A stretch of 64,000 nucleotides of DNA from an uncultured delta proteobacterium (GTDB taxonomy: Bacteria; Desulfobacterota; Syntrophia; Syntrophales; UBA2185). Both the position numbers and the translations under genes were made by a program. The number at the start of each line of letters is the position of its first letter. The stretch's first letter is position 1. Where the stretch lies: the NCBI GenBank assembly GCA_963695875.1, contig CAVOID010000011.1, positions 224,001 through 288,000 of the forward strand, given 5' to 3'. The notes beneath the pieces were generated by a model. The model was not told the origin of the DNA. It saw nothing but the letters and a program-made list of their open reading frames with translations, and did no database searches. This document shows positions 1 through 4,665 of the stretch, in pieces.

Positions 1-19
1 TAAGGCCTCCAGATGTCAA

Positions 20-543
20 TAGATAAATTTATCCATCAACGAAATTTTTTTCTTCCGCTCTTTCAAATAACGAACCATCTGGCTATTGGCAGCAATTCTG
101 ACTTTGTTTCAACATAGGCGTCGGGAGAATGATCCCGCACCATACACTTATAGAGGTTCAACTACCTATTCAATCTGCCCAGGGGAAAAGAGAGAGTCCG
201 CCGGGCATCAGGCAGCTGCAAGGCGAAATCATCACCTTGCGACCTGGAAAATATACCGTACCCTCATGCCGTCCTAATCAAATAACGGGGTATGGGAATC
301 ATCCCCAGTAAGTAGCAGGTTCGGTTGAGGAGCAGAACCTTTCCAACGAGCCAAAGAGCACGTTATGGAAAATTGTAGGAGCGGAACGGACCTCCAATCA
401 AGTCAAGGGAATATCGGGTTTATTCGTCATATCATCGAATATGCGTTCATGGACGCAAGGGTTTTCTTCTCCCTCGATGCGGACACATGCTCGTACCCAT
501 AGTTGTTCCATTAGGTGCTCGGGCTGATCCGTTCCCTCCATAA
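20..543 (-). ncRNA. Putative bridge/seek RNA in the IS downstream non-coding region (boundaries approximate)
   Basis: Located 3' of an IS1111-type transposase. Long-range stems (378-390 with 528-539; ~262-273 with ~318-330) and hairpins (218-240, 341-370, 443-456). Segment 397-404 is identical to the insertion-junction sequence 1668-1675. Confidence 0.7.
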
Positions 544-1587
544 TCATAGGCTTAACAATTTGTCTTGGTCGAAAGCCTCCTTGTTCTTGAGCATGAAATA
601 TACGGCCCGTCCCAATTTATGGGCAAGGATAGACAGGGCTTTTGCTTTGCCGTGTTTCCTGGTAAGCCTGTCTACATATTTCTTTGCCGGATCATTGCTT
701 TTGAGAAAGAAGACGGCGGCCTCGGAGAAGGCCCACTTGAGGTGAACGTTTCCTATTTTACTGCCGCCGGAGCCGCATTTTTTCCCATTGGATTCTTTGG
801 CGCATTTTACGAGGCGGCTGTATGAGGCAAAGTCCTGCACACTGGCGAAGCGGCGGATATTTTCTATTTCGTACAGCATGATCAGGGCGATGATTTTTCC
901 AACTCCCGGGATGGTCTGGAGTAAGGCATAGGAAACCGGGTCGTGGTTATTGGCCAGTTTAATGATGGATTTTTCGAGTTGCGATAAGATGCCATCATAG
1001 GTCCTGATCATTTCAATATCCACGGCAATGCTTTTCTGCACGGAAGGATGTTCAAATTGCTCGGCAATGCCGTTCCTGTTCTGATGTCTTGCGATGGGGC
1101 CAAAGGAATCAGGCAGGTTGTACTGGCTGTTGGTGTTCTGGATATGAGCGTAGAGTTCGGAGCGTTTTCTCATCAGGTGATTCCGGCGTCTCATGAGGTC
1201 ACGCGTGGCTCTCATCTTTGCTGGATATACATAGGCCATGGGGATCATGCCTCCTCTGAGGAGTGCGGCGATCTTTTGGGAGTCGATCTTGTCGTTTTTT
1301 GCTTTGCCGCCATGGATTGCCTTCATGTAGAGGGCATGTCCGAGGACAAAGGGAATGCCTTCGTTGTGGCAAAGATCGGCTACCCAGTACCAGGTGAAGA
1401 TGCATTCTACGGCAACGACGATATCCTCACGAAAGGGAGCGATGGCTTTGAGAAAGGCATCACGGTCGGTTTTCAGGTTGCGATGTTCCCTGATTTCTCC
1501 TTTTTCATCGAGGATGCAGATATACATTTTTCTTGTGTGTAGATCGATTCCGCAGTAATACTTGTGCTGATTAGTGTAAAATCTCAT
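544..1587 (-). CDS. IS110-family transposase / bridge recombinase
   Basis: DEDD RuvC-like motifs GIDLH, VAVEC and KNDKIDS; C-terminal Transposase_20-like region with TIPGVG and ESNGK. Confidence 0.95.
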   Translation of the reverse strand: MRFYTNQHKYYCGIDLHTRKMYICILDEKGEIREHRNLKTDRDAFLKAIAPFREDIVVAVECIFTWYWVADLCHNEGIPFVLGHALYMKAIHGGKAKNDKIDSQKIAALLRGGMIPMAYVYPAKMRATRDLMRRRNHLMRKRSELYAHIQNTNSQYNLPDSFGPIARHQNRNGIAEQFEHPSVQKSIAVDIEMIRTYDGILSQLEKSIIKLANNHDPVSYALLQTIPGVGKIIALIMLYEIENIRRFASVQDFASYSRLVKCAKESNGKKCGSGGSKIGNVHLKWAFSEAAVFFLKSNDPAKKYVDRLTRKHGKAKALSILAHKLGRAVYFMLKNKEAFDQDKLLSL

Positions 1588-2119
1588 GGGGCTTCCTCCT
1601 TCTTCTGGTATTATTTGGCCCTACTCAATTCCAAATATACCATGCTTTGGGGGAGGCCTTAAATAGTATCAAGTCTTTGCTCTGAGGTATCTTTCTTTTT
1701 TAATGATTACGGAAAGAAAGGGTGAAGACAAATATGCAATAATGGAATAAGGATTACAAGAAGAAACGGGTTAGAAAAGTGGTTATTTCTTCCGCTTACT
1801 AATGTTGACAGCCTTTATGTGATAAGCTGGCAAAATTCTGGGGTGACATGGAATAACATAGAATCCAGAGTCCAGATGTTTCAGGATATCTCTGATTGCG
1901 TCCTCATTTTTAATAACACTTATGAAATGCACGGTTTCCTGATACTTTAGACAGACCTACGTATTGAACTCTTAAATGTCTGATAGACTGCGGAAACAAT
2001 TTTTATTATTGCGCCTTTCCATCATCCCCTCAGCATGAGCATTAGGCTACAGATGAACTGGTGATTCCTGTCGCCGTTAGCCTATCGAACGGCTATTGAC
2101 AGAAACTGCGCATTCAGGC

Positions 2120-2669: not shown

Positions 2670-3089
2670 TCAGATGACCTCCTTGTAACTCTTAATAAGC
2701 CGTGTAGCGATGACCCCTGCCAGACGCTTCATGATCGTCAGACCCTCGGCAGGATGCTTTTGAAACACGCGCATCAGGCGATCTGCGTCAATTTTTATCA
2801 CCCTGCTTTCCTTTACACATTCCGCTTTAGCCGTGTACAGATTCGGCTCTACAAGTGATGACCAACCAAATACAGAACCTGTCTTATCTACTGAAAAGGA
2901 GAGTTGTTTATCCCTCTTAACGGTAAGATCAAGATCTCCTTCTTCAAGAATATAAAGATAATCTGCAAAATCGCCTTCTCGAAACAATACATGTCCTGCC
3001 GGGTGACTTTCCTGAGTGACGAGTTCTGCAATTTCGTCAATGATATGTGAGGGAATCCCTTTGAAAAGCTCTACTTCTTGTATGAACAT
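2670..3089 (-). CDS. Stand-alone cNMP-binding-fold protein
   Basis: LFKGI, LFREGDFADYLYILEEG and VFGWSSLVEP motifs; GGAGG RBS. Confidence 0.88.
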   Translation of the reverse strand: MFIQEVELFKGIPSHIIDEIAELVTQESHPAGHVLFREGDFADYLYILEEGDLDLTVKRDKQLSFSVDKTGSVFGWSSLVEPNLYTAKAECVKESRVIKIDADRLMRVFQKHPAEGLTIMKRLAGVIATRLIKSYKEVI

Positions 3090-3127: not shown

Positions 3128-3607
3128 TCATTCAAGGGTAGACAGTCCCCTCTCACCAACCAATATGATCTGGGTGTGGGTCAGACGGGCGGCTATTACC
3201 CGCGCCGTGGCCTGCATAAAATTAAGTCCTAAAGCACCGTCTTGAATTAGTAGTTCCCTGAGTTTCTCTGCATCAAAAGCAATGGCCTTTGAATTGTCAA
3301 TGCACAGGGCCCCTAAGGTATAAGCGTAAGGTTCAACAACAGCGGACCATCCCATGGCATCGCCCTTTGTGACGATATCCACGGTCACCTGCATGGGGGG
3401 TTTAGCGGTGCCCATGTAACTCTCCATGAGCATGACAAATTTTCCCTCTTCCACGAGATAGAGTTTTTTTGCCGGATCACCTTTCTTGTAAACCTGGGCA
3501 CCTGCTTTAAACGATTCTTCAGAAGCGAAACCTGACAGTTTCTTTAAATCACCCTCATCAAAACCTTTAAAAAACGCGAATTGTTTTAAGAGATCTGCGG
3601 AAACCAT
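3128..3607 (-). CDS. Stand-alone cNMP-binding-fold protein
   Basis: FFKGF, YKKGDPAKKLYLVEEG and GDAMGWSAVVEPY motifs; GGAGG RBS. Confidence 0.88.
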   Translation of the reverse strand: MVSADLLKQFAFFKGFDEGDLKKLSGFASEESFKAGAQVYKKGDPAKKLYLVEEGKFVMLMESYMGTAKPPMQVTVDIVTKGDAMGWSAVVEPYAYTLGALCIDNSKAIAFDAEKLRELLIQDGALGLNFMQATARVIAARLTHTQIILVGERGLSTLE

Positions 3608-3714: not shown

Positions 3715-3924
3715 TCAGGCACGTGCATGATACTTGAATGAGATATTGAGCCTTACCCTGAAGGATGTTATTTTTCCATTATCAACAGTAACATCCTGTT
3801 TTACAACCTCCGCTATTCTAAGATCTTCGAGAGTCTTGGAAGCAGTTGCCAGGGCGCTTTGGGCAGCATCTTCCCACGATGTCGGGCTGGTCCCCACGAT
3901 GTCAATAATACTGTACACTGACAT
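3715..3924 (-). CDS. Dodecin-family flavin-binding protein (69 aa)
   Basis: SVYSIIDIVGTSPTSWEDAAQSA...LRIAEV...FRVRLNISF pattern; start moved to the ATG at 3924 behind a GGAGGG RBS. Confidence 0.9.
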   Translation of the reverse strand: MSVYSIIDIVGTSPTSWEDAAQSALATASKTLEDLRIAEVVKQDVTVDNGKITSFRVRLNISFKYHARA

Positions 3925-4230
3925 AATAATCCCTCCTTTTTTCTCAATTGTTCTATTTCCTGGAAATTTATTAGAGATCACCACAAAACCGGCTTACTGA
4001 TTTCCTACTGTACTAAGGTAATAATTCTTTATCCTTTGCCTGATAAGAACTCGCTTTTTTGAAACATATTTATCTGTCCTATAAAAATATCTTATAATAT
4101 TCGCATTGTGAATATTACCAATCTAAACGCCTTATTTGCTATTATATTAACTGCCTACTTTTCATGGTTCTTGGGATAGTGTCGGCGTGTGCAATCCATG
4201 GTTTTTACTTATAAACATCAGTACAAATGA

Positions 4231-4665
4231 TCAGCTCTCCGGCCTTGTAGGTTGAGAGATAAAGGTTTGCGGATCCACCTCGTATACGCCACTGCAAATG
4301 ATCAAGTTATCTACTTTCTTAAAATACACAGTCTTAGGCAGAACTTCTTTTGTTGTCGGGTGGTGCCATTTGTATTTTACCCAGCCGCTACCTTCTTTAT
4401 TGGCAGTGTCGAGGATTTCTTTGATAAACCTCTTGCCGTCAATATCTTTGAGGTCAGCGAAGTCATGCCCCACAAACCTTTCATTAACTCCGTGTGCAAG
4501 CATAATCCCTTTGCTGTCCAATACAAAAATATACAATTCGCCTTGGACAAAATGTCCGGTTGGATTCGAATATTCAGCCAAAGCGATTTTTTTACCGGAA
4601 TTTTTATAAAAGACTACAGCCTTATCTACCCATTCCTCGGCATTTTCTTTGAATTGTTTAAGCAT
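4231..4665 (-). CDS. Stand-alone single Cache domain protein, no signal peptide
   Basis: ELYIFVLD..G.MLAHG, DIDGKRFIKE, GSGWVKYKW.HP and IICSGVY motifs. Confidence 0.88.
   Translation of the reverse strand: MLKQFKENAEEWVDKAVVFYKNSGKKIALAEYSNPTGHFVQGELYIFVLDSKGIMLAHGVNERFVGHDFADLKDIDGKRFIKEILDTANKEGSGWVKYKWHHPTTKEVLPKTVYFKKVDNLIICSGVYEVDPQTFISQPTRPES

Follow-up and report, generated by a model that had tools for sequence, protein, structure and literature searches.

Bridge and seek RNAs are under engineering as programmable recombinases, and to our knowledge every such RNA described so far has one target loop and one donor region. The locus analysed here raises the question of whether an insertion sequence can carry a second, differently programmed target loop, and of what such a loop would do. 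The window is a stretch of 64,000 nt of an uncultured delta proteobacterium, located by match to its source genome (G000:C11:224001-288000). A first-pass annotation, made from the letters alone, had proposed that a non-coding region at its beginning specifies an IS1111-type bridge RNA in which one architecture occurs twice on the minus strand (modules 1 and 2), one loop spelling an integron attC-like site and the other a different target.

Window positions 1-1669 are most of an IS1111-type insertion sequence; its final 4 nt fall outside the window on the left, as do the core and the right target TAGGTGT (L001 1488-1500). The features are collected in Table 1. The IS110 family is recognised by a RuvC-like DEDD domain and a C-terminal Tnp domain, and the recombinase scored above the curated cut-offs of both DEDD_Tnp_IS110 (PF01548, E = 3.2e-15) and Transposase_20 (PF02371, E = 6.9e-18). 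By published description, IS1111-type elements combine subterminal repeats and a 3' non-coding region with a transposase of 330-350 aa (PMC11187229); the repeats of the group are inverted, 7-17 bp long, with short extensions beyond. Here the repeats TAAGGCCTCC and GGAGGCCTTA are 10 bp long, with 9 nt and 6 nt beyond them to the core, the non-coding DNA measures ~550 nt downstream of the recombinase gene (stop codon to right end) versus 82 nt upstream, and the protein of 347 aa falls inside the published range (PMC11187229). We assigned the element to the IS1111 type because of this organisation, that is, the subterminal repeats, the long 3' non-coding region and the transposase size. In relatives, too, the spacing between TTGACA and the right end is constant; no good -10 element was present at 17±1 nt across the predicted circle junction, ..CCTTATAAG-TG-ATACTATTTAAGG.. 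An Rfam search of window 1-2000 returned nothing relevant even at E<=10. In a plasmid collection, the 25 matches listed of 589 records included no characterised close relative: the best recombinase, on one Candidatus Manganitrophus plasmid, was 66.5% identical, and the other 24 listed were at most 34% identical.

Table 1. Features of the element, its predicted RNA and the neighbouring genes, in window positions.
Feature	Position	Strand	Basis
Right end: subterminal inverted repeat GGAGGCCTTA (10-1), conserved TTGACA (19-14)	1..19	-	
Predicted donor-binding domain, long-range closing helix GGUUCUG 339-333 / CAGAAUU 100-94	94..339	-	
Predicted donor-binding 3' strand: CUAUAAG 153-147, putative core UG 146-145, putative handshake UA 144-143, UGG 142-140	140..153	-	
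Predicted donor-binding 5' strand: candidate right-donor guide GGUAUAUUUUC, C247 opposite core G	247..257	-	
Module 2, conserved target-loop look-alike, stems P1-P4	256..337	-	covariance model, structure counts, alignment
Module 2 3' loop: GUUAUU 286-281, UG 280-279, AU 278-277, within ..CCCCGUUAUUUGAUUAGG (290-273)	286-277	-	
Module 2 5' loop: GCUACUUA 316-309, then C 308, within ..CUGCUACUUACUGGGG (316-305)	316-308	-	
Module 1, probable target-binding loop domain	378..539	-	guide/flank co-variation
Module 1 outer stem	539-528/390-378	-	
Module 1 left-target guide GACU 404-401, putative core UG 400-399, putative handshake AU 398-397, within ..CUUGACUUGAUUGGAGG (GACU-UG-AU 404-397)	404-397	-	
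Module 1 right-target guide CACCUA, within ..GAGCACCUAAUGG..	517-512	-	complementary to TAGGTG
Recombinase (transposase) gene, 347 aa	544..1587	-	ORF + Pfam
Left end of element, 5' UTR with GGAGG ahead of ATG	1588..1669	-	both copies identical up to 1675
Subterminal inverted repeat TAAGGCCTCC, left end	1661-1652	-	sequence
Right-donor arm ATACTATTT	1669-1661	-	left end
Outside the element: putative core TG (1671-1670), left target flank GACT (1675-1672)	1670..1675	-	
Three tandem small cyclic-nucleotide-binding-domain proteins	2120-2602, 2670-3089, 3128-3607	-	
Dodecin	3715-3984	-	after cyclic-nucleotide-binding trio
Single-Cache-domain protein	4231-4665	-	after dodecin

A second copy of the element in the same genome (L002, G000:C7:30011-31686) was 99% identical, the identity starting 12 nt left of window position 1. 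Owing to a 1-bp insertion near window 1293, its recombinase gene is broken into two parts; the three RNA modules all persist, with changes there only at window 519 and 543. Related elements have also left decayed remains in the genome: at G000:C10:79672-79818 a right end is joined to a fragment from inside the gene, and at G000:C14:57458-57573 there is a left end with the first codons. A second IS1111-type element was found in L009 (G000:C7:1-2926) and L010 (G000:C8:1-2926). Its recombinase is 30-32% identical to that of the window, its inverted repeats, AAAAGGCACCT, are its own, and its non-coding region measures ~420 nt. The target-loop syntax is the same (AUAUUAU-UG-AU-UGG), the donor strand reads GAUGGG-UG-AC-UGG, and no module 2-like loop was seen in its non-coding region.

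Relatives of the subfamily number at least 307 in one genome collection and range over Syntrophales, Nitrospirota, Binatia, Gemmatimonadota, Acidobacteriota and others. Within the same family 13 of 22 genomes matched, and 79 loci came from other phyla. We aligned the non-coding regions in 65 rows, which represent 61 distinct places (4 loci were fetched twice) and whose recombinases are 55-96% identical; the clade of the window is called the W clade below. For the association tests, we removed 4 rows in which a locus picked up by two tools was present a second time, and 7 further metagenome rows, misaligned or truncated, were removed from the pooled count. A usable non-coding region was obtained from 19 of 80 metagenome loci taken from the matches listed, the remainder being solo right ends, chance matches and short contigs. 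Among the relatives there were also unusual forms: one locus (L023, G001:C26) is a non-autonomous miniature of ~100 bp consisting of the two ends only, and in a Nitrospiraceae copy (L068:3066-3311) the right end is directly followed by a second partial non-coding region, which starts just past the right-donor guide and extends to another right end; the two units are in tandem or nested and meet at a TG.

The junctions of the relatives were compared to locate the core. The left junction read N-TG-ATACT.ATTAAGGCC in every relative where it was found, and the right junction read GGCCT(T/C)ATAAG-TG-TA.. in the W clade and -TG-TT.. elsewhere, TG being invariant at both. An orthologous empty site (G014, L026; ..GAACTCG followed by TAGGTGTTAAC..) aligned to the occupied site without indels only when TG was taken as the core. 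We infer that the core is TG; TA or a single T also fits the two copies, and it is the empty site and the loop syntax that favour TG. A first reading with TA as the core was dropped, given the junctions of distant relatives and the indel-free empty site. With this core, the target would be GACT-TG-TAGGTG (predicted sequence of target 1, GACTTGTAGGTGT), and the donor junction would read ..TATAAG-TG-ATACTATT..

On its right, copy 1 is flanked by a promoter-like motif, AGGTGTTAACAAGTGTTGCAAGAATTCTTTCACG.., which also stands ahead of other genes at 7 further loci in the source genome and four relatives. The motif is ~60 nt long (AGGTGTTAACAAGTGTTGCAAGAATTCTTTCACGAATACCGATTAT.TTTAAGATAAT; L001:1430-1494) and lies just left of window position 1; the element sits at its 5' edge. 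Its other copies (G000:C7:14695-14721, L024, L025, L026, L032, L039 and L040) are followed by different genes, and it looks like a shared promoter or operator. In L009 the second IS type occupies the other edge of the same motif. An exact 12-nt copy of the target, GACTTGTAGGTG, is unoccupied at G000:C11:223725-223736, on the opposite strand ~276 nt left of the window start. The flank of copy 2 is unrelated to the motif, and neither insertion site is an attC, at odds with the proposed insertion into integron sites.

Module 1 spells the DNA on both sides of the insertion. Its 5' strand carries the complement of the right target, and its 3' strand, GACU-UG-AU, is the left target, the putative core and the first two donor bases. 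The noted identity of ATCAAGTC at 397-404 with 1668-1675 was confirmed, and identity with copy 2 ends exactly at 1675. The target as first read, CCTAA-CA-AGTC on the plus strand, was right in that the two guides spell the flanks, and wrong by one A in excess of the actual CACCTA-CA-AGTC. The bases preceding TAAGGCC likewise were predicted as ...CCTAACACTTA and turned out to be ...AACACCTACACTTA, in agreement except for one extra A in the prediction. The attC reading fails because its RYYYAAC box rested on this A, which is unpaired in the module 1 guide and has no counterpart in the real target.

Across relatives, the guides of module 1 change with the flanks. The right guide matched its own flank at 3.60 of 7 positions and the flanks of others at 2.64 of 7 (n=55, permutation p<=0.0002), and the left guide matched at 3.34 versus 2.58 of 8 (n=41, permutation p<=0.0004), as claimed for a target-binding loop. 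When 19 metagenome elements were pooled, the right guide scored 3.68 for cognate and 2.69 for non-cognate flanks (n=65). Column scans for target match peaked at window ~510 and ~399, and a position-by-position scan gave co-variation diagonals for module 1 only (n=38). Several relatives have been retargeted naturally: CACCUA guides accompany TAGGTG at four distinct sites (L014, L027, L017, L018), CAAAUA guides accompany TATTTG flanks (L016, L019), and in the metagenome element L159 the guide matches the flank at 8 of 8 positions. Matches of the left guide cover few positions (4 nt in the element of the window), and those of distant elements are often off by one T. One exception was found within the W clade, L015, which has a CACCUA guide and a right flank, TGATGTG, that fits no guide. 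The right flank of L015 / L042 (G019:C12), TGATGTGTC, fits neither loop, and this copy may be rearranged or mis-assembled. We consider it very probable that module 1 is the target-binding loop, jointly with the donor-strand assignments that follow.

The predicted donor-binding domain contains module 2, both donor strands and three hairpins. Its long-range closing helix was 84% paired in register among 62 distinct arm pairs, versus 40-46% when slid, with at most 5 pair types per position. Identity to the left donor plus TG peaked at window ~145 (6.85/9; 41 elements), the UAUAAGUGU segment was conserved in 65 of 65 aligned rows, and the left-donor guide co-varied with the right end of relatives through AAG, AGG, ACG and AGA variants. 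The best Watson-Crick complement of G plus right donor was 247-257 (mean 6.29/9; 41 elements), which pairs at 7-9 of 11 positions in 31 of 52 elements and shows some compensatory changes (L099; two positions in the W clade). Support for this candidate right-donor guide is weaker than that for the left-donor guide, informative changes being few. The earlier placement of the donor loop at 145-170 was half right: UAUAAGUG is a donor guide, and AAUAGGUA is not the other one. We rejected AAUAGGUA (160-170) as the right-donor guide, as it varies without a change in the donor, falls within an inner hairpin in the lowest-energy fold and fits less well than 247-257. The UG of the donor strand is followed by UA in the W clade, whose right targets start with TA, and by UU in other elements, whose right targets start with TT. 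This dinucleotide may be a handshake guide, a concept that comes from work on the IS621 bridge RNA (PMC11208158); the assignment is based on one clade-level change and on L029.

Module 2 is a genuine loop of long standing. The sequence features of both modules are where they had been placed, and both are present in 65 of 65 aligned rows from many phyla. The stem, internal loop and stem of module 2 were paired in 90% of 733 cells, 10 of 15 pairs had changed on both sides, and none of 500 shuffles equalled this. Its loop follows the syntax of module 1, with a 5' strand ending in ..(A/U)A-C-UGG and a 3' strand of N6-UG-A(N)-U(A/G)GG; the letter at -2 behaves as in module 1, being U within the W clade and A outside it. 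From 49 members we built a covariance model, which scored 79.6 bits on both copies and detected nothing else in the genome, with no match to module 1 or to the loop of the second IS type. The architecture is therefore repeated in its loop syntax, as had been noticed, but not as homology of whole modules, and module 2 is not a recent copy. Within the donor-binding domain, whose closing helix is 333-339/94-100, it forms one arm.

To place the loop letters of module 2 on a scale, we compared 73 element pairs with non-coding regions 75-97% identical, 42 of which gave the value for 4-fold codon sites. The fraction differing was 0.35 and 0.45 for the two guides of module 1, 0.20 and 0.165 for the variable letters of the two strands of module 2, and 0.03-0.05 for its constant letters. 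It was 0.015 for the donor 3' strand, 0.10 for the donor 5' strand, 0.16 for the rest of the non-coding region and 0.44 for 4-fold sites of the recombinase gene. Judged by these rates, the loop letters of module 2 lack both the fixity of a donor guide and the turnover of a target guide, and their constraint is moderate. This constraint leaves room for an unsampled partner and speaks against plain decay.

The proposal that module 2 is a working second target-binding loop predicts a target of about GTTATT-TG-TAAGTAGC (CGTTATT-TG-TAAGTAGC; longer form CGTTATTTGTAAGTAGC). It draws on the constant target-loop features kept in all 65 rows, on the -2 letter that switches with the right-target dinucleotide of the clade, and on variable letters that are more conserved than 4-fold sites and yet differ between clades. 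In one metagenome element (L138) the module 2 guide resembles the right flank, fitting it at 5 of 7 positions (6 if a wobble pair is counted). The flanks as a whole did not bear this out. Against right flanks, module 2 scored 2.12 for cognate and 2.14 for non-cognate pairs (p=0.57), and 2.19 versus 2.22 of 7 in the pooled set (n=68); against left flanks it scored 2.90 versus 2.75 (41 elements, p=0.17). No co-variation diagonal appeared for module 2 (n=38), and the predicted right flank TAAGTAG was found at none of 13 TA-type right-end junctions of the W clade. Among unrelated pairs, a guide matched a flank at 5 or more of 7 positions in 1.9% of cases for module 2 and 8.7% for module 1. Module 2 guides considered as copies of the module 1 guides of other elements seldom fitted any real site.

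The predicted second site was also at control level in four host genomes. There were 19 matches at <=3 mismatches in the source genome (82.6% complete) versus a shuffled median of 22, 0 versus 4 in G022, 5 versus 4 in G024, and 5 versus 2 in G023, where 4 of the 5 were one repeat inside another IS. A search for the target within the element itself or its near flanks returned only the module's own DNA. A mini-element without tnp, L021 (G007:C297), joins the left end to module 2, the donor domain and the right end. It keeps module 2 but occupies a site fitting the module 1 guide that an L019-like helper would supply, which counts against a targeting role, as does the lower diversification of the variable letters (0.17-0.20 versus 0.35-0.45 for module 1). 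These results gave no support to a natural two-target recombinase, since the letters of module 2 track no insertion site. We regard a second target loop as unlikely; such a loop might act on a site of another replicon that is seldom sampled, or serve a deletion, inversion or replicon fusion reaction. If it were real, a widespread IS1111 subfamily would possess a multiplexed bridge RNA addressing, besides the donor, two DNA partners that are programmed independently, and the position of the loop inside the donor domain would couple the second site to the ends of the element.

Alternatively, module 2 may pair with a partner outside our sample, such as an RNA, a host factor site or a DNA site carried by another replicon, that co-evolves with it by clade. 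The loop letters, constrained ~2.3-fold relative to 4-fold sites but different between clades, are what one would look for in such a pair. However, a column scan of the non-coding region returned no co-varying partner except the module's own stem, and no consistent complement occurred anywhere in the element. Candidate RNA-RNA partners, complements of the loops such as UAGGUAGU and GUCAGAUGGU, were confined to the W clade, and a 7-nt match in the 5' UTR of this copy, CAAAUAA, did not co-vary in L017-L019. An unsampled partner appears improbable on the present evidence.

The remaining two explanations fare worse. A decaying, functionless duplicate of the target loop would account for guides that match nothing observed, but it is very unlikely in view of the presence of module 2 in 65 of 65 aligned rows across many phyla, stems that stay paired via compensatory changes, constant letters that differ by 3-5% where 4-fold sites differ by 44%, and a module 2 model that misses module 1. 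That module 2 is itself the donor-binding loop is scarcely credible: it does sit within the donor-binding domain, but donor identity and complement peak outside it, at 143-153 and 247-257, its 3' strand has a target-type handshake (A, matching the right donor) rather than a donor-type one, and its letters are variable, unlike the nearly constant donor ends.

Our preferred explanation is that the ~550-nt 3' non-coding region encodes, on the minus strand, a bridge (seek) RNA of two domains. In domain 1 (module 1, 378-539), the 5' strand would pair with the top strand of the right target TAGGTG, and the 3' strand GACU-UG-AU would carry the left target, the core and the first two donor bases; reading right target and left target plus core in this manner would select GACT-TG-TAGGTG. 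Domain 2 (94-339) would be multi-branched and donor-binding, strand 247-257 pairing with the right donor ATACTATT and strand 143-153 spelling left donor, core and handshake as UAUAAG-UG-UA. Module 2 would form an arm of domain 2, an internal loop with invariant target-loop letters (..AC-UGG, ..UG-A.-U(A/G)GG), whose most likely role is to bind the recombinase in an auxiliary, scaffolding or decoy capacity, with no part in choosing insertion sites. Three observations stand against the auxiliary role: the partial fit of the module 2 guide of L138 to its right flank, and two features of the letters. The variable letters of module 2 differ by 17-20% versus 44% at 4-fold sites, and its -2 letter changed from A to U in the very clade where the handshake and the right-target dinucleotide changed, as for a DNA-pairing loop. 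We therefore put forward the auxiliary, non-targeting role tentatively, as a reading whose chances fall slightly short of even, and hold the explanation as a whole, with module 1 as target loop, the two donor strands and an auxiliary module 2, to be somewhat more probable than not. The anatomy, the conservation and the co-variation of guides with DNA for module 1 and the donor strands are observations; the roles of the TG core, the handshake letters and module 2 are our interpretation.

The claim of an IS1111-type bridge RNA is itself supported, as the target-loop guides co-vary with the flanks and the donor guides match the ends of the element. Six metatranscriptome runs contained small shares of the element, and contigs from four of them, 88-95% alike, cover the non-coding region. 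One contig of 446 nt (X17 record 17) spans window 109-544 and so holds modules 1 and 2 and the donor strands in one piece, and another of 621 nt joins the 3' end of the gene to module 1. These contigs indicate presence only, being strandless and without ends or level, and RNA libraries can carry DNA.

What is new here is a predicted three-loop bridge RNA whose third loop has target-loop syntax. We found no published description of a three-loop bridge RNA or of a second target-like loop, although Extended Data Fig. 10c and Supplementary Table 5 of Durrant et al. could show one; section 2.4 of bioRxiv 10.64898/2026.10.21.760802 makes no mention of a second target-like loop. The subfamily has long kept this loop, and the two-loop model has no such design feature, be the loop a scaffold, a decoy that limits transposition or a latent second guide.

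In most respects the element resembles ISEc11, ISKpn4, ISPa11 and ISPst6, the seekRNA elements described in PMC11187229, which have a DEDD recombinase of ~340 aa, subterminal inverted repeats and a long downstream non-coding region. The guide order reported there for IS1111 seekRNAs, a top-strand complement 5' of a top-strand match, is also found here, and in both cases the two guides overlap at the insertion point; close relatives of those elements are naturally retargeted as well (PMC11187229). Unlike them, the non-coding region here is ~550 nt, compared with ~205 nt deleted in ISEc11, the predicted RNA is far longer than the long seekRNA of 145-170 nt, and an extra conserved target-like loop lies inside the donor domain (PMC11187229). 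The locus is at the same time a clean natural case of retargeting, with handshake letters that co-vary with the target, in the IS1111 branch.

Like the IS621 bridge RNA, once the orientation of the DNA is flipped, the RNA predicted here has one target loop and one donor region with two opposite-strand guides each, a shared core dinucleotide, and two-letter handshake guides beside the core that match the non-cognate partner (PMC11208160, PMC11208158). It differs in lying at the 3' end, in a guide order reversed relative to the gene, in a putative core of TG instead of CT and in having a third loop where IS621 has two (PMC11208160, PMC11208158). Its donor guides are placed in a multi-branched junction, unlike those of IS621 (PMC11208160), and such a junction is reported as common in IS1111 orthologues (Durrant et al. 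2024, PMC11208160). The two-RNA pathway of CazIS110-1 likewise employs more than one target-loop unit, a truncated target-loop RNA accompanying the full bridge RNA (bioRxiv 10.1101/2025.10.25.684509). There, both target loops have identical guides and derive from one gene via truncation, whereas the element described here encodes two adjacent loops with different programming, the second matching no flank (bioRxiv 10.1101/2025.10.25.684509).
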